Of a stretch of 64,000 nucleotides of DNA, positions 15,168-51,534 are shown one piece after another (position 1 is the first letter of the stretch; each line of letters opens with the position of its first letter). The stretch comes from Iphione sp. A-MEVVRFRX5. Its lineage: Eukaryota. The stretch lies in assembly GCA_976226885.1 (NCBI GenBank), contig OZ320314.1, positions 116,498,001-116,562,000 of the forward strand. Reading direction: 5' to 3'. The position numbers were made by a program, and so were the translations under genes. The notes below the pieces were generated by a model. That model searched no databases. It was not told the origin of the DNA and was given only the letters and a program-made list of their open reading frames with translations.

Positions 15168-17041
15168 CCATATTTACAGAAAAATACTGGCCATAAACGA
15201 CCATTGGCGGCCATACAGATCATTGGCCATTAAGACGGACGGCCTTTGCAACCATCATTCCCCATAGTCGTGGTATGTGACTGAGCCTGTTTCACAATAT
15301 CAACTCTCCATGCAGAGGCTCAGCAATTTAACATTGAGGAGCATACTCATTAAAAGATGGGAGGAAGAAGTCGCCCTCCTAGATTGAACACGAGGGAAGC
15401 AAAACCCTATCAACCAGCCAAGCGTGGAATCACCCGGTAACAACATCATTTACGTAGAATTGTCCCAATTAAACAACAGTTGCAGGAGGAGATGGAGATA
15501 ATGCATTTCCAGGAGCATCAATCTTGAGCGTAATGAATTGGGTGCTTTAAGGCAGAGTGAGGGACTGGAGTCTGAAGGGCAGAGAAAGACTCCCAGCCCG
15601 CCCGCCCAGCCCGCCGAGCCGATCCCCCCGACCTTAAATAAGGAACAAAGGGGAACGATTAACTGTCCACTGGTAAGGTTTCATTCACCGAGCTGAGAAT
15701 AACGAGGAAGAGGACAGGTAATCGCTCAGGGAAGGCATTATTAAAGGGAAATATAAGGAAACTCGAACTGGGGCAGCATGATGAAAATTCTAATGACCAA
15801 AACCTGATGGTGAATCGTTCACCAAAGCTGAAGCAATTCAACAATGGTAGCCGTGCGATAAGCATGGACAAAGGAGAAGTCCTGGAATCTGAAAAAGATA
15901 GATCCAAACGTTAGAGTCTGATAATTAGCATGATTTGAATGAAACACGTCGTGAATCTCCTCCAATTAACGGGAAAATTTGAGGTTTTTTGGTGTAACGT
16001 TGTTGAATTTCAGTACAATCTGTAAACATTTTAGTTTCCGATGGACAGTTGTTAAATTCCAACTTATATAAAATGTGAGTTCTTTATTCAAATTAAATGC
16101 AAATTCGGTAGACTTTTAACATGGTGCAAACACAAACAGGCACCTTTCCTCACAGATTTAGGTGTGTTCCTGTGTATTTCTCACACCTTTGGGTGTTCAA
16201 ATAGGTGATGTGCCACGTGTGACTACATTTAATAATTCCTTGAGCATTTTCTCACAATTCTCACAACCTATGGCGACTTTTGTCACGCCTTCTACTTGTG
16301 TGAGTAGATCCTAGTAATTCTTAACCCTTTCCTCTTCCCTTCATCACACTGTTTTCCTCGGATTTCCTGGATAGTACAGTGTAATTCCAGATTTGTACGA
16401 GTTCGACTGCTGGTGCAATGTAAGAATCGTACAGACTTATAGAAAACTTCTGGAGCTTGCAGCACCATCTTAAAATCATGCAAATTCTGAAACTTAACCT
16501 GTACAAAATCTTTGCAATTCCCCCAATGGTTGCACAATCAAGGAATCTATGAAAAGGAGACAATTTAGCTGTTTGCATCTAACATACAACTGTATGACAT
16601 GGAGCTATTCAAATTTTGTACGAGTCCTGAGTATATAAGCGGTTGGGCACAGGTTTAACATTGAACACAGGTTTAACAATGGTCTTCTTTTCATGAGAAG
16701 GTTTCTTCGCCATCAGGTAAGAATCGACACATCAGCTGGAGGTGCTTTTGGAATGTAATGGTCCCCTTCAGAGGGGAAAAAAATATTACGCCAGGAATTT
16801 TAAGACGGCATCAGTACGATGCCTGATGCATAGTTCACGTCTTTCATCTGTACGTAGCTCGTGTTCCATTCGTGGCTGTAACAGCACCAAAATGCCAATG
16901 CAGGATAAAACGATGTCTCTCATAGCAACGCATATTTATGCATTTCCACTCTCAGAAAGTATCTAGATAACCAGCATGTGTCAGCCGAAGGTATTACTCT
17001 GGAAAGCATACGTAACCGGTATGCTTTATACCTGTTTATAT

Positions 17042-17729
17042 TGTAATTCGGTTAACTCTTCCACTTGGTGTAATCCAACTAAACGCTAGCTCCCTTAGTT
17101 ACTCCACTGTAATTCCAGTGAGGCTATGTCCAGTTACTAACTCCAGGATAATTCCCCTGTTGAAATTCCCACTTGGTGAATCCAACTATTGTTAAGTGTT
17201 ATCCTGTCCCAGTTACTTCACTGTAGTCCCAGTGCGGTTACATCCAAGTGCCAACCCTGGGTAATCCAAGTGGGTTTGATATATCCCCAATCAACAAGGT
17301 CCACTAGTGAGTTCCAAGTGCAAACTGTTTTATTGGCCACACAGGGCCCATATTTATAGTCAAACTCCTGGTCATGTGATCCATACAATGTATTATTCAT
17401 GGAATAAAACTGTTACAACATGTGGTGTGTGCCTTACTCTCTACCAATCATCTCAGAGCAATCAGATACAAAGTTACAGATGCCTGGGCATCCAGGGCTC
17501 AGGGCCATACAACTTGCCTGTGGTGCCACAGGCCATGACCATTTTTCTAAATTACTACGACATAGTTACCCTGGCTGGCTGTGGTGCCGCAGCCGAGATC
17601 GTTTCTAGAGTTCACCAAGTACAGTACATGTATCTACTACTGTATACGACTGCAGTGCCACAGTCGACGTTAATTCCAGAGTTCACCAAGTACAGTACAA
17701 GTGGCTGTGGTGCCACAGACAACATTACA
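17042..17729 (-). repeat. 3' LTR
   Basis: TG...CA termini. Matches 27189-27876 except two substitutions found by eye (GTGAGTT/GTGAATT and TATTATT/TATCATT). Confidence 0.97.
17329..17358 (-). promoter_or_regulatory. LTR TATA box (TATAAATA, 17358-17351) and poly(A) signal (AATAAA, 17334-17329); equivalents in the 5' LTR at 27505-27498 and 27481-27476
   Basis: Motifs read on the - strand and positioned as expected for a U3/R boundary. Function inferred. Confidence 0.7.
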
Positions 17730-17742
17730 CTCTCCCCACCTT
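17730..17742 (-). other. Polypurine tract
   Basis: AAGGTGGGGAGAG on the - strand, abutting the TG of the 3' LTR. Confidence 0.9.
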
Positions 17743-17759
17743 AAAACAGTCCGCCGGGG

Positions 17760-18480
17760 GAAGTGCAAACCGGTTATCCTGGGAGGCACAACCTGAGCTA
17801 GCATAACTCTTCCTAGGGAGGTTAACAGTTGTCCTAACAATTCTTGGATAACTACTGGTAACTCTGGCAAAGCCTCCATAGGAGGTGATGATCATTAATA
17901 ACACTCCCAACAATTCTTGGATAACAACTAGTAACTCTGGAAAAGTCTCCATAGGAGGTAATGATCGATACTCACTAGTCATCAACGGTAACAGTCTGGA
18001 ATATGCACATACATACAGGAACAGTCTGGGATAAATGCTTACTCTGGTAAAGCCTCCTTAGGAGGTAGTGATCAATATTCACTGGTCATCAACGGTAACA
18101 GTCTGGAATATGCACGTACATACAGGAACACCCCCCTTTTAGTAATCGATTATCTGGAATGTATGCTGAATCTGGTAAAGTCTCCATGGGAGATAAAGAT
18201 GTAGTCATCACTTCTAATAAGACAAACCTGAACCCCGTTTTTTTTTTTTTTTTTGTGGGGTACAGTCCCCTCCAGTCATTACTTTGATAACACTCCACGG
18301 CCCCATAGGGGGTAACATTTGGCAAGTAACATGGGTAACAATCATCACAGATCAACATCACATTATAGCAAAACATTATAAATACTCCACCTGAGGCAGA
18401 GAACCTGAGTGTATAACCTTTTTTTTTGTGGGGTACAGTCCCCTTCAGTCACTTCCCACAACTCTCCAAACCTTAGTATC
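17760..18480. repeat. Degenerate tandem repeats in the element's 3' non-coding region
   Basis: ACTCTGG(C/A/T)AAAG(C/T)CTCCATAGGAGGT-type unit about 4 times; GTCATCAACGGTAACAGTCTGGAATATGCAC twice; TTTTTTGTGGGGTACAGTCCCC twice. Confidence 0.8.
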
Positions 18481-18650
18481 TCAGGTAACAATTACGAACA
18501 GTAAGGTTTTTATGGGGGGTAGGGTCCCCTTCTCTACCCTTTTCTTTGTAACACCCTTGTTTAACGAACCCCCCCCGACAGCTAGACTAAAGAAACCTCC
18601 AAAGGAGGTAGTCACATGCGGTGGCACAGCCTCCAGGCTTGGACGGGACC

Positions 18651-20021
18651 TTACTCCCCGTCCTTCCTCTCCTTCTCCGCTGCAGGGTGCGGTCGGCCCT
18701 CCGCCCCCTTGAGGCAGCGTCTCCACACTTCTTGTGTCCCCAGCAACAGTTGCCTGGGGGCCGAATGACGACAGACGTCATACAAGGTAGGGGACTGCTG
18801 GTCCTGCTGCATCTGCGCGTCGTCTCTTTCACGTAACCACCGAACTGCGTCGGTGGCCCTAGGGCCCCTATCTTGTCCTCCCTCCCTCTGGAGATCCTTA
18901 ATGAGGTTTTCTGCGACAGTAACGGTGTGATTGTTCCGGGCGAGTATATCGTCTACGTTTCCCCAGTCCTGCGGCTGAGGGAGTGCCATCCCGGGCAGGA
19001 GAAGGGCTGGCCTCTGTCGCAGTGGTTCCAACACAGTAGGGGGGAGTGCCCCACCTCCTTCCGCTAACTGGAGCACCCAGGCCAAAGATAATGATGTCAT
19101 CAACCGCTGGACCGGAGAGAGTGCGTCCCAGCGCGGGGGAGGCCAGGTGATGACAGGTGGTAGACGGACCGGGCCTGGCACGAGTTGGCTCCGCATAGTG
19201 GCCACATGGGGAGGGAAGAGGCCAGAGAGGATGTCCTGCACGCGTCCGGTCACATGTGGTCGCCGCCGCGGCGACAGGGTATAGGCGGCCAGCCGGGCCA
19301 GATGGCCCTCCCCCAGGAGTGAAAGCTCGTCTCGGACGCCAGCGGGCCAGGCTTTCCCTTGAGTTGGCACCCGCGATGGCGTACAGGCCGTGCCGGACCC
19401 AGGAGTGGCCGGCCGTCGTTCCTCAGGTGTTGCCGCAACCTCTCCAATCGCCGGTTCCACGGCGGGGGCCTCACAAGGTGGGGAAACCGGTGCCGCCTGT
19501 GTGGAGGAGGCAGCCCCCGACCCCTCCCCAACGGGGCCCCCGATCCTGCACTGACGGGGCAGTGGCGGGGGGTTCGCCCGTTGCGGGCATTCGGCCAACA
19601 TGTGCTCCACATCTTGTTGAGTCAGCACCCATCCCTCCTCTCGGGCCCGGCGGGCACGCATAAGAATAGTGGTCAGTTCGTCATCTGGGGCAGCGACGAT
19701 CCGAGGCCCCCCACTCACTACATCGTGGAGACATCGGTAAGGTTTTTCGGTCAAACCGAAGTCAACGGCCCAGGGGTGGTAGCGTCGCTGGTGGGTAACC
19801 CAGTAGTGTTCATCGTTTATCACCACCGAACACCAAAGGCACATAATATCACGGCCCCGCCCCCCTTCATGCTTATCATGTACATGACGATCATATGAAT
19901 CTTGATTCTTGAATGGACGTGGTACAACACACCTGGTACAGATCTTGGCCTCTGGGGTAAGCTGTAAGTCTGGTGTCAGCTTACTGGGCCACCGTTTTCC
20001 ACCTACCTTCTTGCGCGGCAT
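18651..20021 (-). CDS. Accessory ORF3 of the retrotransposon: C2H2 zinc-finger protein (456 aa from ATG 20021; frame open from 20051)
   Basis: Uninterrupted ORF, ATG in ACAATG context, basic N-terminus PRKKVGGKR. Finger 1 is C-x2-C-x14-H-x4-H (CTRC..F..Y..HVHDKH). Finger 2 is C-x2-C-x12-H-x4-H (CLWC..HQRRYH). A TEKPYRC linker-like segment follows. Confidence 0.8.
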   Translation of the reverse strand: MPRKKVGGKRWPSKLTPDLQLTPEAKICTRCVVPRPFKNQDSYDRHVHDKHEGGRGRDIMCLWCSVVINDEHYWVTHQRRYHPWAVDFGLTEKPYRCLHDVVSGGPRIVAAPDDELTTILMRARRAREEGWVLTQQDVEHMLAECPQRANPPPLPRQCRIGGPVGEGSGAASSTQAAPVSPPCEAPAVEPAIGEVAATPEERRPATPGSGTACTPSRVPTQGKAWPAGVRDELSLLGEGHLARLAAYTLSPRRRPHVTGRVQDILSGLFPPHVATMRSQLVPGPVRLPPVITWPPPRWDALSPVQRLMTSLSLAWVLQLAEGGGALPPTVLEPLRQRPALLLPGMALPQPQDWGNVDDILARNNHTVTVAENLIKDLQREGGQDRGPRATDAVRWLRERDDAQMQQDQQSPTLYDVCRHSAPRQLLLGTQEVWRRCLKGAEGRPHPAAEKERKDGE

Positions 20022-20059
20022 TGTCGGCGCTCGGTGGCTGCGGAACCACAAGCGTCTCG

Positions 20060-20190
20060 GATGCCCTCCACTCGATGCAGCTGTGGGTCCGCAGTCAGTT
20101 TATTCACCTTGTGTGTGTCCTCCTTCTGATACCCTCCACTCGGTACAGCTGTGGGTCCGCAGTCAGTTTATTCAACTTGTATGCGTCCTC
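20060..20190. repeat. 68-bp tandem duplication, each unit carrying the palindrome and a minus-strand AATAAA
   Basis: GAT(G/A)CCCTCCACTCG..CAGCTGTGGGTCCGCAGTCAGTTTATTCA at 20060 and 20128. Confidence 0.9.
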
Positions 20191-20358
20191 TACTCCCTGT
20201 GGCACCACAGCCGCCGAGCTAGCGTCGACGCTTCTGTGGTGCGGTTCCCTTCGCCTTCTTTGCCCTGGTCGTTGTTCTTACTGGTCCAGAAGGTCCAGCT
20301 TCATGTCCTCCTCTTCTTCTCCCACGCTTCCGAGCTGGAGAGCCTTATTTTGCAGTAA

Positions 20359-20730
20359 ATTATAGCAATTTAAATGCCCCAAGCCGAAATCTTCCCTAGA
20401 ATTTTGAGCCCTGGATCGAAAACGAGGCTGGGCGGAAGTTTACGTTTGGCTGCGGTTCCGCAGTCACTGTTTTTTTTCTTTTCTACCGCTGTGGGGCCAC
20501 AGGGTGGAATTTAATGCCTTTCTTTACAAAGTCGGGACCTTTTAAGCTGTTTCCGCAAATTTTCATCAGATTTTGGCAGTCAACGGACTTTCGGCGATGG
20601 GTGCCTGTGGGGCCACAGCCGCTCGGCGTACTGCGTAGTTCGGTTCCCCTCTCTTGCCTGTGGCGCCACAGTCGCTTTCCCGCTCGCGCTGCCTATAAGT
20701 ACCCTCGTTATCCAGGTCTCGGCGTTAGTT
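20359..20730. promoter_or_regulatory. Putative divergent internal promoter
   Basis: Minus-strand TATAAT (20364-20359); plus-strand TATAAG (20694-20699) with Inr-like TTAGTT at 20725-20730; four CTGYGG-NN-CCRCAG palindromes between them. Confidence 0.55.
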
Positions 20731-20758
20731 CTCCAACTGACTTCATAGGATCCACACC

Positions 20759-21022
20759 ATGGAAGGCAGCTACCATCTACCCAGTTGGCTCATGGCCTAT
20801 CCTCCTACTGTGAACCAGTAAGTTCCCTATTGTCTCCAGCTTCAGTCATTTTGTATTTGATGGTTCTGAAATTCAGTTTGTTGTTGTTAGGGTTCTGTTC
20901 AACCTTTCTCTTCATAGGTTAAGATCAGACTCTGGTGGGTGAAGCACCCCTTCATCTCCAGCCTGTGTGTCCTCCTTGCTGCCATTCAGATGGTTAGAAG
21001 GTGAGTGTCCTTGGGTGATTTA

Positions 21023-21055
<33 letters not shown>

Positions 21056-21892
21056 GTTTTGCAGGTACGCCGATTTCTTTTACCTGTGCCTCTTGGTTTT
21101 GCAGGTACGCCGATTTCTTTTACCTGTGCCTCTTGGTTTTGCAGGTACGCCGTCCCTGATGCGTACTACCGACACGTAGACGTCACCACCCCAGGGCCCT
21201 CTTTACGCGTGTACGGTCTCTACAATGTCTTGGACACGCCGCTGTACATCGCGTCGCCTGGCTATGTCCGCCTCTTTGGCCCGGATCACGTTCTGGACGT
21301 GGTGGTCCATCCTGCGGGGCCGTCGGAGCCGCCTCTTCCCACCATACACGATCCATGGTGGTGTGTCGATCGGAATGAGGCTGTCTCCCCTGACCTGGGG
21401 CTTCGGGACGTGGAAGAGACACTGGCGTCTCTCACTCCGGATCCGAGCTACACCAGTCTGGCCACCTCGTCCGCCGCTTCCTGGGCCGACTGCAGTCCTT
21501 CGGCCCCTCATGATGTTCCAGCCTGGGCCCTAGGCATAGACGATCGTGCCTCCCTCTCCTCCACCGACAGCTACGCGGGCACCGACGGGACCGCCTCGAC
21601 GCTGACGTCCAGCCGTCTCGACCCTTGGGGGTCCGACCAGGACCTCAGCGACCTGTTCTCGCCGCTGCCGTCGGCTCCTCCTTCCCCTTCCCTGTCGCTG
21701 GACTCTCCACCATGGTTCCCGGCTTCTCCCTCCTCCTCCGGCACCACTTCCATCAATGACACTCCCGACAGGGGGACCCCCCTACTAGGTCGGGCCCTGC
21801 TGGAGGAGATGCCAACTGACATTCTTTGCCAATGCTACCCAGGCCTCTGCCGGGGGGACTGCGCGTCCTTCCCGATCGTGCTGTCCGACTAA
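20759..21892 (+). CDS. Antisense spliced accessory gene (predicted exons 20759-20817, 20962-21000, 21145-21892; 281 aa), unknown function
   Basis: Donors CCA/GTAAGT (20818) and AAG/GTGAGT (21001); acceptors CTTCATCTCCAG (20961) and GGTTTTGCAG (21144). The joined exons give 846 nt in one frame ending at TAA 21892, followed by AATAAA at 21961. The last exon is better supported than exons 1-2. Confidence 0.62.
21055..21152 (+). repeat. 40-bp tandem repeat that triplicates a splice acceptor, preceded by T30
   Basis: GGTTTTGCAG/GTACGCCG with AG at 21063-64, 21103-04 and 21143-44; T-run 21025-21054. Confidence 0.9.
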
Positions 21893-21960
21893 ACGTCCGA
21901 CTATATGTGTAAATATTGTGAATATGTAAATAGATCCCGTCGCAGCATTAAGGGTTGTTA

Positions 21961-21966
21961 AATAAA
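21961..21966 (+). terminator. Poly(A) signal of the antisense gene
   Basis: AATAAA 69 nt after the stop codon, in an AT-rich island within a GC-rich region. Confidence 0.65.
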
Positions 21967-22714
21967 TTTCAGTTACCTGTTAGTCGTCTCCCTGTGGTTT
22001 TCCTTTCCGTACAGTTCTTAAGTCTTTCTCCCTCTTAAAGGTGTCCAAAGGCAGCCTCTGCTTCCCCTCGACCGGTCTACTAGAGGAAATGGACCGCAAC
22101 TGGGCCCCTCCAGAGGAAAGTGGACCGCATCTTGGCCGTGCAACCACTCCCCTTCGTCCAGAGGACAAGGACAGCATCTTGGGTAAAGTAACCCTGTCCT
22201 ACTTGTGGTCTCACCGTCTCCCGTCCGTCAATCCGTACCGAACCGTTTCGAGCTCCGCCGTCTCCGGGACGTTCACTCCCTACCCGCTTCATAAACGTTT
22301 CGCGTGCTCCAAGGTGTTCATCCTCCCTCCGCAGGCCTTTCGTGCATCTCCAGGAGGTCCGTCCTCCTACCTGGACTTTCTGGGCCGGGTCAAACCCCAG
22401 GATGTCCATCCTCCTCCAGGGAATTTCGGATGCGAAATACGCTTTCGGGCGTTCCCTTTTCGCCCCACGGACTTTTCGAGCGCTACCAGGGGGCCTCCCC
22501 TCTTCACAGGTCGTTTCAAGCCGATGGCTTCCGGGTCGCCTGTCGCACCCATAGTGGCCATTTCGAGCCCTTCCGGCTCCGGGCGGGCCGTCGCCCTCCA
22601 TGAACCTTTTCGAGCATCGCCAGGACGTTTATCATCCTACCTTCCGACTCGCTATTCCTTCCGAGTCTGCGGGACACTGGGTCCCAGCGGGCTTCCTCGC
22701 CCCCCATCTCCTTA

Positions 22715-25700
22715 TCAGGCCTTTCGGGAAGAGGTCTCGCCCCTCGCGGGAGGGACGGGGGCCTCGCTTTTCCTGCGCCAGGAGATGATCCACCGGGGTA
22801 ATTGATCCCCCCGGTACGGCCGTAGACGGTTCCTATGTATGACTTTCGGCCTTGCCTGCTTCGAGCGTTGTACCACCATTCGCTCATCGTCCAGGGCCCG
22901 TATGACTAGCCACGGTCCCGACCAAGGGAAATGGGTTTTGGGACTCTTTCCTTTCGGGGGTTGGGCTTCATGGAGCCATACCGCCGCCCCTGCCTCCAAG
23001 GCGTCTCCCCTCACCCTCCGATCGTATGCCCGGGCCTGGGCTCGGGCCGCCGTGCCCAGCTTCTCCCGGACTCTACTGTACGCTGCTTGGAGACGCCGAA
23101 CCATTCCTCCCACGGGATCAGGTAAGTCCTCCGTAGTAGGAGTCTTTTGAGGGAGACCATCCACCGCATGCACTGGAAGGGTTATCTCCCGCCCGAACAT
23201 GAGGTAGTTCGGAGTGTAACCAGTGCTAGCCTGGGGTGAAGCGCGGTAAGCCATCATCAGGAAAGGAAGTGCGGTGTCCCACTCATCCCGACTCTCAAAG
23301 CAGTGTGCCTTGATCATTTTTCCAAGTGTGCGAAAACTTCGTTCAATGAAACCGTCGCTCTGTGGATGGCGGGGGGTGGTTCTGGTCTTCTTAATGTCAA
23401 GGTAGTCGCAGAGAGCTGTGATGATCTCGCTGCAGAAGTTAGTTCCTTGGTCGCTGTGTAGTTCGTGGAAGCAGCCATAACGGGCGATTACCTCTTCCGC
23501 CAAAATCCGAGCAACCTGAGGAGCCTTTTGGTCTGGTAGCGGGAATGCCTCAAGCCACTTGGTGAAATGGTCGCCCACCATCAAGATATAGCGGTTCCCT
23601 CGTTCAGTCAGCGGCAGAGGTCCCGCCACATCCATGGACCATCGCTCCATGGGCTCCCCTGGCAAATAAGATTTGAGTGGCACTTGGGGACGGAGTGGGT
23701 TCTGGTTCAGCAGGGCGCAGTGACAGCTCTTGCACCAAGTTGCGATGTCTTCTCTCATCCCTGGCCAATAGTAAGCCAACGATACCAGGTAAGTGGTTCG
23801 CTCGGCGGCCAGGTGCGCCCCGGTTTGCCCCGCGTGTACTTCCTTGAAGGCCTTTTCGCGGAGTACGGCTGGTAGGACCACCTGCAGTCGAGAGGGGTCC
23901 CCCCCAAGGCCAGTCCATCTGCGTTGCAGAAGACCATCCGTCAAGGTGAGTCGGCTCCACTGTCGCCAGAGGCTCTTAGTCACAGCTGACAATGGGGCCA
24001 CCCACTCCCAGGGGGGTTGTTGAGGGTCCAGTTCCAGGGCTTTAAGGATCGGCCCCACACACTCGTCCTGGAGTTGAGCCGTTCTCAGTTCTGGATGTTG
24101 GGTCCCCACCGCCTGGCTGCGGGTTACCACCCTCACCTTCTGGGTTACCCCCTCTTCAAGAAGGTGTTCCTGTTTACACTGCCGACAGGGTTGGCGGGAG
24201 AGGGCATCCGCATTGGCATTCAGTCGGCCAGCTCGGTGCTCCAAGTGAACATTGTACTGCCCTACCCGTTCCAGCCAGCGTGCCAGTTGCCCCTCCGGAT
24301 CCTTGATCCGACGGAGCCAGCTTACGGCTCCGTTATCAGTACGCACAGTGACTTCTTGTCCATACAGGTAGAAGTGGAAATGTTTCAGGGCCGCTACCAC
24401 CGCGAGCAGCTCCCTACGCATCACACAATACCGCCGCTCAGGTTCGCTCAGACTGCGGCTATAGTATGCCAGTACTACCTCTCGTCCCTCCTGCCATTGG
24501 GCGAGCACGGCCCCCAGCCCCACATTGCTGGCATCCGTGTCTAGGAAGTAGCGTCCCTCAGGTCGTGGGTACCCCAGGATCGGGCTGGTAGCGAGGGCTG
24601 ACTTTAGCTCCTGAAAGGCCTTTTCTTCCGGCTTTCCCCATGTGAACGGTGTCTTGGCACTGGTTAGCTGGTTCAGAGGGGCTGCCACATTCGCAAAGTG
24701 TGGTACGTAACGCCGGTAATACGAACAGAGGCCTAAGAAGGCGCGCACCTCTGTCGTGCAGGTTGGAGTTGGCCATTCCTCAATGTCCTTCGTCTTGCTG
24801 GGATCTGTAGCCACCCCTTTAGGCGAGACGATATGTCCTAAAAAACCTATTTCTTGCAGGAACAGCTGACATTTTGACGGTTTCAGCTTCAGTCCTGCCG
24901 CCGAGAGCCGCGTCAACACCCGATCCAAGCGGGCCAGGGTTTTCTGGAAGGTCCTTCCGAACACCAGTATGTCATCGAGGTACACTAGACATTGTTCCCA
25001 CGTCAAGCCACGTAACACTGTGTCCATCAGGCGCTCGAACGTTGCTGGTGCATTGATCAACCCAAATGGCATGACGGTAAACTCGTATAGTCCTATGGAC
25101 ATGGAGAATGCCGTCTTCTCCCGATCTTCTGGGTGCATTTGAACCTGCCAGTATCCGGATGCCAAATCCAGGGAGCAGAAATATTTAGCTCCCGACAAGG
25201 TACTCAATGAGTCATCGATCCTTGGTAGTGGGTAGGCGTCAACCTTCGTCTTCTCATTTAATTTCCTATAGTCGACGCAGAACCGAGTGGTCCCATCTTT
25301 CTTTCTCACCATCACTACCGGGCTAGACCACGGGCTGCTACTCTCGACAATCACTCCCTGGTTTTTCATTTCATTCACCAGCTTCCGTTCCTCTTGTCTT
25401 TTTGCGAAGGGCATGCGCCGTGGGGGCTGCTTGATAGGATGTGGATCTTCGGTGTAAATGCGATGTTGTACTACATCTGTGCACCCTAGGTCACCCCGGT
25501 CCCGGGCAAAGGCCAGACTGTGTTTCCTGAGCAACCGCCTCAAACGTCCCTGCTGGTCCGGGGTAAGGGTCTTCGTGGTGGACCCCACCAACTCCTGTAT
25601 CACGTCAGCCACTGCCCTTCTTATGGCACACACACTCTTCTGAGGAGTCACTGACGTTTCATCCCAGGGACGGGCGGGGACCCCCACAGCCACCTGGGTT

Positions 25701-26344
25701 CCCTGTTTCAGGAATATTTCCAATTCGGTCGTGTTCCACATGGGCAGGGTGGCTTCCACCAGGCATCTCATTCCTATCACCCCGTTATTCCACTGTGAAT
25801 CCAGCAGCCCTTCAATCATCAGGGGTGCCCCCCCATTGTGGTTCACTAGCACAGCAACCCCCTCCCCAGGTGGCAGAGTCACATCGTGAGCCACTCGGAT
25901 CTCCACCTCCCGTTTCACCACCCGGCGGCATCTAGGGACGTCATTTTTCAGGGCTATCTCTTGTTTGGCTAGATCGATCACCGCCTTATGCTGGCACAGG
26001 AAGTCACTACCTAGGATGCCATCTTCTTCTACTTCAGCCACTAGGAAATGGTGTGGAAAACTCTTGCCCGCTATTTCTAATTTGCAGGTGCGGTGTCCCA
26101 AAGTAGGGATAACATGCCCTCCCGCCCCAGTGATACACGTCAGTGAACCCCTCTCCTCCAGGCCAGGGACCACACGGGGGTTAACAATGGATACCTCGAC
26201 ACCAGTATCAATCAACAGTTCTAACAATCTTCCATCAAGGCTTACCTTCAGTCGTGGTCCCTGACCTGGTTCCATTGTAGTCCCCGTTAAAGCTATCCCA
26301 GTCGTACCATCCTGGCCTAATTGGTCGACTGAGATCCGTTTCCC
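22715..26344 (-). CDS. pol: Pol polyprotein (protease, RT, RNase H, integrase with GPY/F-type C-terminus), expressed by -1 frameshift
   Basis: LIDTG protease; VVMVRKKDGTTRFCVDYRKLN and YLDD RT; DTDASNVGLGAVL RNase H; integrase H..H/C..C, DVAGPL, SDQG, GFIER and WSGPW. The frame is open from the slippery site to the stop. No chromodomain seen. Confidence 0.97.
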   Translation of the reverse strand, partial: GKRISVDQLGQDGTTGIALTGTTMEPGQGPRLKVSLDGRLLELLIDTGVEVSIVNPRVVPGLEERGSLTCITGAGGHVIPTLGHRTCKLEIAGKSFPHHFLVAEVEEDGILGSDFLCQHKAVIDLAKQEIALKNDVPRCRRVVKREVEIRVAHDVTLPPGEGVAVLVNHNGGAPLMIEGLLDSQWNNGVIGMRCLVEATLPMWNTTELEIFLKQGTQVAVGVPARPWDETSVTPQKSVCAIRRAVADVIQELVGSTTKTLTPDQQGRLRRLLRKHSLAFARDRGDLGCTDVVQHRIYTEDPHPIKQPPRRMPFAKRQEERKLVNEMKNQGVIVESSSPWSSPVVMVRKKDGTTRFCVDYRKLNEKTKVDAYPLPRIDDSLSTLSGAKYFCSLDLASGYWQVQMHPEDREKTAFSMSIGLYEFTVMPFGLINAPATFERLMDTVLRGLTWEQCLVYLDDILVFGRTFQKTLARLDRVLTRLSAAGLKLKPSKCQLFLQEIGFLGHIVSPKGVATDPSKTKDIEEWPTPTCTTEVRAFLGLCSYYRRYVPHFANVAAPLNQLTSAKTPFTWGKPEEKAFQELKSALATSPILGYPRPEGRYFLDTDASNVGLGAVLAQWQEGREVVLAYYSRSLSEPERRYCVMRRELLAVVAALKHFHFYLYGQEVTVRTDNGAVSWLRRIKDPEGQLARWLERVGQYNVHLEHRAGRLNANADALSRQPCRQCKQEHLLEEGVTQKVRVVTRSQAVGTQHPELRTAQLQDECVGPILKALELDPQQPPWEWVAPLSAVTKSLWRQWSRLTLTDGLLQRRWTGLGGDPSRLQVVLPAVLREKAFKEVHAGQTGAHLAAERTTYLVSLAYYWPGMREDIATWCKSCHCALLNQNPLRPQVPLKSYLPGEPMERWSMDVAGPLPLTERGNRYILMVGDHFTKWLEAFPLPDQKAPQVARILAEEVIARYGCFHELHSDQGTNFCSEIITALCDYLDIKKTRTTPRHPQSDGFIERSFRTLGKMIKAHCFESRDEWDTALPFLMMAYRASPQASTGYTPNYLMFGREITLPVHAVDGLPQKTPTTEDLPDPVGGMVRRLQAAYSRVREKLGTAARAQARAYDRRVRGDALEAGAAVWLHEAQPPKGKSPKTHFPWSGPWLVIRALDDERMVVQRSKQARPKVIHRNRLRPYRGDQLPRWIISWRRKSEAPVPPARGETSSRKA
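26292..26344 (-). other. -1 ribosomal frameshift signal (GGGAAAC plus downstream stem-loop)
   Basis: G GGA AAC at 26344-26338 near the end of gag; a -1 slip enters the pol frame. Hairpin CAGTCG-ACCA...TGGT-A-CGACTG starts 6 nt downstream. Confidence 0.85.
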
Positions 26345-27156
26345 TGTAACTCAGGGCAATCACGCCGGAAATGGCCCTCTTGTCCACATTGGAAACATTT
26401 AGTGTAGCGCGGCCTCTTGTTCCTTGCTTCCTCTCGAGCTTGCATCTCTTCTCGGATCTTGGCAAGTTCCTTAGTGAGCTCTTCCATAGGCTTCGTCCAC
26501 GCTGGGGTCGGCGGGGCCTGTACCACCTGTACCCTCTTAGCAACGAATCGTTCCTGAGTCTCCACCACCTGTACTGCCGCGTCCAACGTCGTGCACTTCG
26601 CCTCCAGGCATTTGAGGTGGAGGGAGTCGACCAACGATCGCTGAAAGGCAGCCACGGCGGCCAGTTCCCGAGTCTCCCCGGACACGTCGGGGTAGGCACT
26701 CCTTACCAGACGCCTCACCCTGTCAGCCAGGTCCCGGACATCCTCGTCCTTCTGCCTGCGGATGCTAGAGAGCTTCTGCATGGCCACCACCCGGTCGCGT
26801 CGCCTGCCAAAACGTCGTTCAAGCGCCGTCACACGGGATCCATAATCCCGCTTGTCCTCCGGTGGTAAATCTCCATAATACATACGCGCTGGGCCGGTGA
26901 GCGAAAGCGTCAGGGCAGAACAGCGGGTGTTCTCACTCCACTTGCAAGCGTCCGCCCACTCTGTGAACTGTCCTATCCAACTGTCCCAATCCACAGTCTT
27001 CCCATCGAAGCGTTCAGGCTTCATGGCGTTCATCTTTAAGGGTTCCTCCGGGGCTAGTTCAAACTGCTCACCTTCTTCTTCCTCCTCGCCCGCATGTGCT
27101 GGGCTGGGAACCCGAATTTGCACTTCCTCATCCACTGCCACGTACTGAGTTGCCAT
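26317..27156 (-). CDS. gag: Gag (279 aa)
   Basis: KPERFDG..W..F capsid-like start; CFQCGQEGHFRRDC CCHC zinc knuckle; begins 13 nt after the PBS. Confidence 0.95.
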   Translation of the reverse strand: MATQYVAVDEEVQIRVPSPAHAGEEEEEGEQFELAPEEPLKMNAMKPERFDGKTVDWDSWIGQFTEWADACKWSENTRCSALTLSLTGPARMYYGDLPPEDKRDYGSRVTALERRFGRRRDRVVAMQKLSSIRRQKDEDVRDLADRVRRLVRSAYPDVSGETRELAAVAAFQRSLVDSLHLKCLEAKCTTLDAAVQVVETQERFVAKRVQVVQAPPTPAWTKPMEELTKELAKIREEMQAREEARNKRPRYTKCFQCGQEGHFRRDCPELQGNGSQSTN

Positions 27157-27169
27157 CTTGCTGTTGAGG

Positions 27170-27187
27170 ATCCCACCGCTGCCACCA
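27170..27187 (-). other. Primer-binding site complementary to tRNA-Leu
   Basis: TGGTGGCAGCGGTGGGAT, 1 nt inside the 5' LTR, complementary to the 3' end ...AUCCCACCGCUGCCA-CCA known from metazoan tRNA-Leu(AAG). Confidence 0.88.
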
Positions 27188-27188
27188 G

Positions 27189-27876
27189 TGTAATTCGGTT
27201 AACTCTTCCACTTGGTGTAATCCAACTAAACGCTAGCTCCCTTAGTTACTCCACTGTAATTCCAGTGAGGCTATGTCCAGTTACTAACTCCAGGATAATT
27301 CCCCTGTTGAAATTCCCACTTGGTGAATCCAACTATTGTTAAGTGTTATCCTGTCCCAGTTACTTCACTGTAGTCCCAGTGCGGTTACATCCAAGTGCCA
27401 ACCCTGGGTAATCCAAGTGGGTTTGATATATCCCCAATCAACAAGGTCCACTAGTGAATTCCAAGTGCAAACTGTTTTATTGGCCACACAGGGCCCATAT
27501 TTATAGTCAAACTCCTGGTCATGTGATCCATACAATGTATCATTCATGGAATAAAACTGTTACAACATGTGGTGTGTGCCTTACTCTCTACCAATCATCT
27601 CAGAGCAATCAGATACAAAGTTACAGATGCCTGGGCATCCAGGGCTCAGGGCCATACAACTTGCCTGTGGTGCCACAGGCCATGACCATTTTTCTAAATT
27701 ACTACGACATAGTTACCCTGGCTGGCTGTGGTGCCGCAGCCGAGATCGTTTCTAGAGTTCACCAAGTACAGTACATGTATCTACTACTGTATACGACTGC
27801 AGTGCCACAGTCGACGTTAATTCCAGAGTTCACCAAGTACAGTACAAGTGGCTGTGGTGCCACAGACAACATTACA
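27189..27876 (-). repeat. 5' LTR
   Basis: See 3' LTR; adjacent to the PBS. Confidence 0.97.
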
Positions 27877-27904
27877 ATATAATCAACTCAGAGATGAGCA
27901 GACT

Positions 27905-28100
27905 AGTATAAGCCCCCCCCCCCCCCAAAAAAATAGGTGTGTTTCTAGTAACCCACCCCTACCTAGTAAAATCTCACCCTACCTAAAAACATTTTGGCCC
28001 CAAAGAGTTTCCAAGGATGAATTTCTTTAGATATGTGTTTTTACTGCAATTTTTTTTGTAAATTCAGTAGAAAAACAACAAAACTCATACAGATTGGTCA
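27905..28100 (-). mobile_element. Partial MITE of the GGCC..AAAAAATAGGTGTGTTTC(T/C)GGTAAC family
   Basis: Reverse-complement similarity to copies at 48690-49050 and 51191-51534. Confidence 0.7.
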
Positions 28101-42178: not shown

Positions 42179-42440
42179 ATGAAGATCGGGCTCACCGTGC
42201 TGCTGTGTTTGGTCATTGTGCTGGTGATCGCTTCCATCCTCTGTCATGTCGTCGCTCTAGCCACGGACTACTGGCTCAAGTCGAGCTCGTCTGGCCAGAC
42301 GGACTTTCTCAACCTCGGCCTGTTCGTCGCCTGCTTCCACGAGTACGTGCACCCGCACGACAACCCACCTCGGACCTACGATGGCTGCCACTATCTCGAA
42401 TCCAACTACTACTCGACCATCAGGGACTGGCTGGTTCCAG
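42179..42440 (+). CDS. Claudin-like (PMP22/EMP/MP20/claudin superfamily; Sinuous/Kune/Megatrachea-like) coding exon 1
   Basis: MKIGLTVLLCLVIVLVIASILCHVVALATDYW..NLGLFVAC..YDGCHY..IRDWLVP. TM1, the W-LGL-C signature and the second loop Cys are present; donor G/GTAGGC. Confidence 0.9.
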
Positions 42441-43022
42441 GTAGGCTTTCAACATTACCTGAACCATATACCTCTCTAACCTGCTACACTGTAGAAGATA
42501 GCTTCATACATATATGTTGGCCTCCCCCCCCCTCTCCCGCGACGACGACGACCACCACCACCACCGCCACCGCGATAGCCATTGATATACCCCACGGTGA
42601 ATGGTGTATAGTCACTGCGAGCCGCCATACACAAACACCGTTACAAACAAACACACCCACACGCGTCTGAACACATCCCAAATGCTCCTTGCTAGGGGCC
42701 ATCTAGAAAAGTAGGTCGCAACGACCAAACAGCCGTGTGCGGTGTAGGATTCTGCTGCTGCTGGCCTTTCGTTGGTGCAGAGGGTTGAGTCATGACCACT
42801 AACATAGCTGTGGCCGTACCAATCTCGTTTTAAAAGTCGAGTCACATATTACATTCTTTACTTAAGCCCAAGGACGGTTAATCTGTCTGTTAAATCATGT
42901 CACTCCCCCCCCCCGCCCCCTACTCGCCCACAAGCATTTCCTTCAGGTTCCCAAAAGGACATTGCTCATCAGAAGGATTCTGATTCTGAATTTTTCGTAT
43001 CGTAGACGTCCACACATTGGTT

Positions 43023-48689: not shown

Positions 48690-49050
48690 GATAAACCCCC
48701 CCCAAAAAAAAGAAGATAAGTGTCTTTCTGGTTACAGCCAACCAAAAGCCTAGGTAGGGAGGGTGGGGGTATCTTTTTTTAAAAGTTTGTTTTCACTTTC
48801 TTCCTCTGGTTTTCAATAATAATAAAGACCATATAAAGAATTTTGACCATTTTGCACAAGTTTTACAGTTTTTCGTTGAATTTCCATGGACTTAGTTGTT
48901 TTTCTACTGAATTTACAAAAAATATGTGCTGTGAAAAATGCAGCCTTGGTAACACTTTGGGGCCAATAAATGTTTAGGTAGGGTGAGGATTTACTAGGTA
49001 TGGGTGGTTGACCAGAAACATACCTTTTTTTGGGGGGTGGGGGGGGGGGG
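48690..49050 (+). mobile_element. MITE, same family as 51191-51534
   Basis: Collinear internal similarity (TTCCTCTGGTTTTCAATAATAATAAAG..TAGGTAGGGTGAGG..ACCAGAAACA). Confidence 0.75.
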
Positions 49051-51190: not shown

Positions 51191-51534
51191 GGCCCCCAAA
51201 AAATAGTTGCGCTTCTGGTAACGACCAACCAAGAACCTAGGTAGGGAGGGGGGTATTTTTTTTTTTTTAATTTTTTTTTCCACATTGTTCCTCTGGTTTT
51301 CAATAATAATAAAGGCAATATGAAGAAGTTTGACCAATTTGCATGAGTTTTACAGTTTTTTTATGCATTTTCATGGATTTTGTTTTTTACTGAATTTACC
51401 AAAAATATGTATCATGAAAACACATATCTAAGGAAATTCAGCCTTGAAACTCTTTGGGGCTAAAAACTTTTAGGTAGGGTGAGGTTTTACGTGGTAGAGG
51501 TGGGTTACCAGAAACACACCTATTTTTTTGGGCC
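51191..51534 (+). mobile_element. MITE with GGCC termini and 3-bp TSD (TTG); Zator- or Harbinger-like
   Basis: GGCCCCCAAAAAATAG..TTCTGGTAAC / GTTACCAGAA..CTATTTTTTTGGGCC. End relics (AGGCC..TTTCCAGTAAC) also near 12820, 32595, 39045 and 50165. Confidence 0.7.

Follow-up and report, generated by a model that had tools for sequence, protein, structure and literature searches.

A two-finger C2H2 gene and a private palindrome in a young Ty3/gypsy retrotransposon: a possible self-encoded transcription switch

The element and its genes

The DNA analysed here, referred to as the window, is a stretch of 64,000 nucleotides from Iphione sp. A-MEVVRFRX5. On its minus strand, at 17042-27876, it carries an intact and very young Ty3/gypsy retrotransposon that encodes, in addition to gag and pol, a C2H2 zinc-finger protein termed ORF3 (Table 1). 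The assignment to Ty3/gypsy is based on LTRs with TG...CA ends, a target-site duplication, a polypurine tract and a primer binding site, which we take to be of the tRNA-Leu type, and furthermore on a gag with a CCHC knuckle and a pol with the domain order PR-RT-RH-IN according to Pfam. The closest Pol belongs to the P0005 family (54% identity, grouping support 100/96). Between its LTRs of 688 bp there are 2 mismatches, which marks the element as very young and thus recently active. Its LTRs show a CpG observed/expected ratio of 0.29, the flanks have a GC content of 41% compared to GC-richer gag, pol and ORF3 by codon position, and no Rfam match was found in the element.

Table 1. Features of the ORF3-carrying element (positions in the window).
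Feature	Position	Strand	Remarks
5' LTR	27189..27876	-	2 mismatches to 3' LTR
5' LTR palindromes	27852, 27797, 27726, 27665		same four as in 3' LTR
Primer binding site (PBS)	27170..27187	-	presumed tRNA-Leu type
gag	26317..27156	-	279 aa, CCHC knuckle
Slippery-type heptamer	26344-26338		in gag-pol overlap
pol	22715..26275	-	intact, order PR-RT-RH-IN
Antisense gene (probable, spliced)	20990..21966	+	splicing inferred from sequence
Candidate divergent internal promoter	20022..20989		8 palindromes; TATA-like 20364 (-), 20694 (+)
Palindromes upstream of ORF3 (starts)	20038, 20081, 20149, 20197, 20450, 20489, 20605, 20658
ORF3	18651..20021	-	456 aa; basic start, finger pair, Pro/Ala-rich linker, C-terminal domain probably helical
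C2H2 finger 1	19869..19940	-	C28, C31, H46, H51
C2H2 finger 2	19776..19841	-	C61, C64, H77, H82; CxWC as in L081, L087, L118
WPPxxW...LPG segment (residues 293-344)	18990..19145	-	colinear with post-pol protein of L081; statistically marginal
Polypurine tract (PPT)	17730..17742	-
3' LTR	17042..17729	-	688 bp, TG...CA; TATA 17358, AATAAA 17334
3' LTR palindromes in U3	17705, 17650 (imperfect), 17579, 17518
4-bp target-site duplication	17038..17041	+	second copy 27877-27880

The GC-rich spacer following pol (21970-22714) contains an 8-mer in four copies (22615, 22568, 22481, 22253) and two overlapping ORFs, one of which was scanned against Pfam, without support; the spacer folds no better than its shuffles (z 0.10). 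Outside the element, a claudin-like exon of the host is found at 42179-42670 on the plus strand (Pfam Claudin_2, E 8e-7), which is consistent with an animal host. A short repeat is dispersed at 27913-28095, 48713-49047 and 51200-51532 with identities of 79-86%, and one of its copies begins approximately 40 bp from the edge of the element.

The ORF3 protein

ORF3 begins 2.7 kb past pol and is intronless. A sequence-only reading of the window had described it as an intact ORF of 456 aa, and the ATG frame 20021..18651 on the minus strand agrees with this; no stop-free frame of this length was seen in 2000 base shuffles of the region (maximum 391). Its start, MPRKKVGGKR, which had been described as NLS-like, is indeed basic, and the two C2H2 fingers, placed by the same reading at 19940-19776, were recovered with their ligands at exactly these positions. 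The fingers show the ligand spacing C-x2-C...H-x4-H together with a hydrophobic core and are separated by a non-canonical linker of 9 residues. The zinc ligands align across related post-pol ORFs; their lack of conservation would have spoken against the finger assignment. Pfam reports no family for the whole of ORF3 at E<=1, and for its N-terminal 107 aa the zf-C2H2 matches are weak and below the cut-offs (E 0.26 and 2.7).

A lost third finger had been proposed on the basis of the segment TEKPY, which resembles the TGEKPY-C linker. This could not be upheld: TEKPY starts at residue 91, eight past His82, it is followed by C97 and H99 only, and there is no finger beyond. In the finger regions of 27 relatives, aligned and inspected by eye, a TGEKP-type linker occurs neither between the fingers nor after finger 2 (0/27). 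Since some of these relatives have a P[FY] motif after finger 2, the likeness of TEKPY may be due to chance or to this motif.

The Pro/Ala-rich linker was confirmed, the middle of ORF3 containing 19% P and 16% A; its acidity is low (1% D, 8% E) and an acidic activation tract is missing. The C-terminal domain is probably helical according to a low-confidence prediction: the earlier suggestion of a helical region is reproduced in a single-sequence model, but the confidence of that model is low (pLDDT 39), and the AlphaFold single-sequence models of ORF3, with pLDDT 39 and 42, are both too poor to use. As no transmembrane stretch is present (maximal 19-residue hydropathy 1.04), ORF3 is not env-like. 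Its GC content by codon position (0.70/0.53/0.63) resembles that of gag and pol, and its codon usage correlates with that of gag-pol at 0.60 in frame vs 0.55 in frame +1.

Direct searches with ORF3 gave no homologue among 8000 candidates of a word-index search and, for the finger region by itself, none among 55 candidates. The HMMER check recommended earlier, carried out on 1.84 billion representatives, returned a single match to a repetitive protein over 40 residues, which was judged to be chance, and the Atlas search gave C2H2 leads only, all sub-0.9. No matches of ORF3 were found in metagenome contigs, viral contigs, the assembly G001 or PDB sequences. The top non-self match of the ORF3 N-terminus is an antisense two-finger ORF past pol in another element (L065:7705-9075, minus strand; E 0.02). 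A host exon resembling ORF3, which would have pointed to a recent capture, was found neither in the window flanks nor in the protein searches.

Two-finger ORFs in related elements

Relatives were sampled via Pol, the metagenome scan covering the top 80 out of more than 485 matches, which gave 79 loci. Of the sampled loci, 55 with an integrase C-terminus were scored, including one locus from the viral collection. A sense two-finger ORF follows the integrase in 7/55 (two of the 7 being near-identical to each other), while 3 loci have a partial or single finger and 1 has an antisense pair. The assembly G001 was reached through the relative L081 and contains 162 Pol matches. Its 21 best-scoring Pol contigs, picked by Pol score alone, comprise 14 with a sense two-finger ORF, 1 in which the contig ends within a finger, and 6 with none, three of these six having <450 nt after the integrase. 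Over all 60 scored G001 contigs, seven of which were fetched partly for finger matches, a two-finger ORF was found in 22. The view of ORF3 as an oddity of one element thus gave way, two-finger post-pol ORFs being common among its Pol relatives. G001 is filed as a bacterial MAG; besides the gypsy Pol matches it contains several multi-C2H2 ORFs, which to our eye resemble Maverick polymerases, and it is heavily contaminated by repeats of a probable animal host.

The post-pol two-finger accessory ORF class, as defined in this analysis, comprises sense ORFs that lie past pol and before the 3' LTR, carry a finger pair at the N-terminus and have a tail of low complexity; ORF3 shows all of these features. 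In the relatives the finger pair is likewise located near the N-terminus and followed by low-complexity tails, some of which end in heptad repeats. One post-pol finger ORF has a terminal BTB_2/POZ domain (L161:7326-9089, plus strand; E 7e-13), BTB and heptad tails both being oligomerisation modules, and two finger ORFs are fused to a TatD DNase domain (L170:7518-9032 and L191:10704-13166, both plus strand; Pfam E 6e-43 and 9e-34). In three further elements (L056:5469-7169, L073:3358-5517, L162:2680-4803) the finger module is in frame with the C-terminal tail of the integrase and may be made fused to Pol. For one pair of relatives, L036 and L037, dN/dS amounts to 0.29 over 445 codons, i.e., purifying selection in this pair; in the remaining eight pairs, which have reached or nearly reached saturation, pN < pS. 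An additional ORF of approximately 270 aa lies directly upstream of gag in two relatives (L044:2851-3681; L130:553-1350, minus strand). It belongs to no Pfam family, and Pfam did not bear out its SGNH-like appearance.

A profile of 27 post-pol finger pairs, with ORF3 left out, aligns both ORF3 fingers (E 5.8e-7 among 14,338 ORFs), and unrelated multi-finger ORFs outscore ORF3 on it. As this profile is generic for C2H2, the case for homology of ORF3 to the class is one of position and layout. The post-pol protein of L081 (487 aa) is similar to ORF3 in size, in the CxWC of finger 2, in a GW motif and in the WPPxxW...LPG segment. The similarity is marginal (7/500 shuffles; 84/2000 and 55/2000 for segments chosen afterwards), and the pairwise match of the WPPxxW...LPG segment to L077/L081 was discarded as not significant (E 0.54). 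In quick trees, finger-carrying elements are scattered across a broad, weakly supported region around the Pol of the window, with finger-less elements interspersed. Position and layout make it very likely that ORF3 belongs, as a divergent member, to an old class of accessory genes; it looks like inherited cargo and not like a recent host capture.

A palindrome confined to the LTRs and the region upstream of ORF3

The palindrome CTGYGG-NN-CCRCAG, absent from the sequence-only reading, has 16 matches at <=1 mismatch in the window compared to 0.22 expected (0/100 shuffles). It is confined to two places: four copies are found in the U3 of each LTR (4+4), 160-350 bp upstream of the LTR TATA box, and eight at 20038-20671, directly upstream of ORF3. 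In 53 kb of flanking host DNA none was found, and in 196 sampled loci (1.21 Mb) the exact palindrome does not occur. Conservation extends to positions outside the search pattern (Y in 22/24 and G in 19/24 half-sites), resulting in the extended form YGNCTGYGG-NN-CCRCAGNCR with the half-site YGNCTGYGG over 12 distinct sites. These 12 sites are not independent, as some copies arose through local duplication. Most copies are free of CpG. A reading as hairpin was rejected, the asymmetric sites giving G-U pairs on opposite strands in different copies. Applying the C2H2 recognition code as we assume it to hold, finger 1 of ORF3 (N-1, D2, S3, R6) would prefer G-Y-N-G, a partial fit to GYGG, while for finger 2 no clear fit would result; little weight is given to either.

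Dyad arrays scoring above 12 shuffles were seen in 4/22 finger-carrying and in 1/8 finger-less relatives; the window scores 9 compared to a shuffle maximum of 4. The near-complete elements L081, L036 and L009 have no such arrays. A motif common to the pre-ORF and 3' regions that beats shuffles was found in 1/10 relatives, and it is AT-rich, tandem and unconvincing. A family-wide rule, by which each element would have its own palindrome, was dropped on these counts. Short repeated dyads, different in each element, are located in the 3' regions or LTRs of L130, L185, L189, L191, L162 and L127; L130 has six dispersed dyad copies, and no finger ORF was found in it.

The upstream region of ORF3 and a probable antisense gene

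A 1-kb region with the eight palindromes and the candidate divergent promoter separates ORF3 from the probable antisense gene, and both point away from it. The internal TATA is imperfect, and four palindromes lie downstream of it in the putative ORF3 5' UTR. Directly upstream of ORF3, at 20057-20190, two 68-bp repeats each carry a palindrome and a minus-strand AATAAA (20099, 20167), and these AATAAA-bearing repeats are possible attenuation signals.

The antisense frame is probably a spliced gene that starts on the far side of the palindrome region. Its proposed parts are an ATG at 20990 (or at 20759 via a further exon), a donor after 21000, an in-frame acceptor before 21145, an exon running to the stop at 21892 and an AATAAA at 21961. 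Besides a poly-T run, the stretch 21026-21144 contains the acceptor three times, at intervals of 40 nt and with GT behind every copy; of these, just the third keeps the frame of ATG 20990 when joined to the donor. The predicted product has an N-terminal part of approximately 90 aa followed by an acidic Ser/Pro/Asp-rich tract, and its acidic Ser/Pro-rich middle may be akin to an activation domain. The length of the exon is modest evidence (29/2000 shuffles are as long); the codon usage compared to gag-pol gives 0.49 in frame vs 0.25 and 0.08 in the other frames. No homologue was found in Pfam, in the Atlas or among the 14,338 ORFs.

For the expression of ORF3 two routes were considered. Splicing in the manner of env, which would join the strongest donor in gag (27071) to the acceptor preceding ORF3, was rejected, since it leaves ORF3 out of frame with the gag ATG (85+16 nt); this mildly favours the internal promoter with its TATA-like box at 20364. 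Splicing is suggested by an acceptor-like YAG directly before the ATG in 13/27 relatives (alignment, by eye) and by the imperfect internal TATA.

Proposed mechanism and alternative explanations

That the palindrome occurs in the LTR U3 as well as upstream of ORF3 speaks for a DNA binder with a self-regulating role, and from the anatomy of the element ORF3 probably binds the palindrome in some role. The specific reading towards which we lean, giving it slightly less than an even chance, is that an ORF3 dimer binds the palindrome and switches on the LTR together with an internal promoter, in the manner of foamy-virus Tas. ORF3 would then be the element's own sequence-specific transcription factor. 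Its transcription would start at an internal promoter located between the ORF3 and antisense frames, and its basic N-terminus would bring it into the nucleus. A dimer would occupy the extended palindrome with one finger pair per half-site. When bound in U3, at the four sites that precede the LTR TATA box, it would activate gag-pol, binding to the eight sites by its own promoter would establish feedback, and the divergent acidic antisense protein, or its RNA, may tune the switch. The arrangement suggests that the element may make its own transcription switch in the way complex retroviruses do. Against activation it has to be considered that a 9-bp half-site is long for two fingers, that ORF3 has no acidic activation tract and that most finger-carrying relatives have no palindrome arrays.

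It is conceivable, if unlikely, that a host factor, RUNX-like or other, binds the palindrome, and that ORF3 binds or exports the element RNA, tethers integration or acts as decoy for host zinc-finger repressors. The RUNX core is TGYGG, with TGYGGT as consensus, and TGYGGT is enriched in the LTR (7.3 per kb) and in the intergenic region (5.2 per kb) vs 0.7 outside. The rarity of dyad arrays among finger-carrying relatives fits this explanation as well, and the Pol-frame finger modules and TatD fusions suggest roles besides transcription. However, the details of the half-sites do not fit RUNX: the base after TGYGG is T in 7/24 half-sites only, the spacer is never TA and the 5' C is kept in 23/24. 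The restriction of the palindrome to the element, as judged from the 53 kb of flanking host DNA, also argues against a host factor.

Somewhat less likely still, ORF3 may be an autorepressor or copy-number control that binds the same palindrome and dampens the LTR and its own promoter. Repression fits equally well in one respect, as four sites lie downstream of the putative internal TATA, where they would be placed like operators in the putative ORF3 5' UTR. The palindrome evidence is the same as for activation, ORF3 is devoid of an acidic tract, one relative has a BTB tail, and self-control by transposable elements is documented (PMC6719617). Yet the U3 sites are positioned like enhancers, upstream of the TATA box, and the young age of the element indicates recent activity.

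An anti-silencing function similar to that of VANC, in which ORF3 would bind the motif of its own family and remove or block repressive chromatin and not recruit polymerase, appears improbable. According to PMC6719617, VANC needs a motif that is abundant in its own element and rare elsewhere, as is the case here; the palindromes, however, cluster at promoters only and mostly lack CpG, and the LTR CpG observed/expected ratio is 0.29. The readings of ORF3 as a host exon captured recently, as a neutral passenger or as an env-like protein are hardly credible. No sequence homologue was found in the protein, metagenome, viral and G001 searches and the codon-usage correlation is barely higher in frame, but ORF3 is intronless, has a codon-position GC like gag and pol as opposed to the 41% of the flanks, lacks a transmembrane stretch and has common equivalents in relatives.

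Comparison with known systems

The closest parallel to the proposed activation by ORF3 is found in the foamy viruses (Spumaretrovirinae), in which the accessory gene for Tas/Bel1, together with Bet, lies between pol/env and the 3' LTR, as ORF3 does behind pol. The elements to which Tas binds lie in the LTR and in the internal promoter alike (PMC517496, PMC7828637), and the proposed logic for ORF3, a self-encoded DNA binder with sites in LTR and internal promoter, is the same (PMC517496, PMC13220597). As in a Tas-like system, one cis element is found here in the LTR U3 and again at the putative promoter of the accessory gene, and a probable second accessory gene comes from the same region, in likeness to Tas and Bet. 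The differences are that this is a Ty3/gypsy element without env, that the binding module consists of C2H2 fingers, that the site is a conserved palindrome and that the second gene is antisense and divergent. ORF3 would work like Tas but is by no test made here a Tas homologue.

Extra ORFs between pol and the 3' LTR, in sense or antisense, are known from the plant Ty3/gypsy elements Grande (gene23), Retand and RIRE2, and some of the plant products are nuclear and driven by their own promoter (PMC7264820). These elements belong to the Tat lineage; the word 'zinc' has no occurrence in the searchable text of PMC7264820, and a site shared by LTR and internal region is not described in that portion. 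VANC of the VANDAL DNA transposons resembles the ORF3 reading as an accessory protein encoded by a transposable element with a motif enriched in its own element, but it stems from a plant DNA transposon, has a tandem non-palindromic motif, acts through demethylation and is not described as C2H2 in the text consulted (PMC6719617). Errantivirus Env and sORF2 of the MDG1 group are third genes of gypsy elements, sometimes downstream of pol (PMC11952523). They are membrane proteins, whereas ORF3 has no hydrophobic segment. With host Kruppel-type C2H2 repressors (KRAB-ZFP and similar) ORF3 has the C2H2 ligand pattern in common. These host proteins are arrays of many fingers (three or more) with TGEKP linkers; in contrast, ORF3 has two fingers, no such linkers and no Pfam effector domain.

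Implications for retrotransposon biology

Self-encoded transcriptional regulators are a hallmark of complex retroviruses, and LTR retrotransposons are thought to borrow host factors. The finding of ORF3 is real and more general than first thought, and it resembles the accessory regulators of complex retroviruses. Searches of the mainly open-access article literature turned up no account of C2H2 accessory ORFs for gypsy elements of animals, and a prior annotation of post-pol finger ORFs in Repbase, Dfam or GyDB is quite possible. The mollusc LTR survey PMC6238403 contains neither 'zinc' nor 'ORF' in the text reached by term look-up, and post-pol C2H2 ORFs are not described in the available parts of PMC2774666, PMC12440569, PMC8220671 and PMC11952523.

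As a tentative and somewhat doubtful generalization, these elements may form a broad, apparently undescribed group of animal Ty3/gypsy "complex retrotransposons", characterized by a fast-evolving two-finger DNA-binding gene in the env position with swappable tails (coiled coil, BTB, TatD nuclease). In the element described here this gene would be part of a foamy-virus-like switch, with ORF3 acting on a palindrome private to the element, located both in the LTR and in the divergent promoter that it shares with an antisense partner. As this copy provides both the protein and the candidate site, the idea is testable. If it holds true and such a C2H2 gene is widespread among the gypsy elements of animals, the trait of self-regulation would extend to retrotransposons. 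Accounts of the conflict between host and transposon usually place the fingers with the host; C2H2 fingers would then also work for the transposon, and among the small zinc-finger genes annotated as "host" in invertebrates some would be element cargo.
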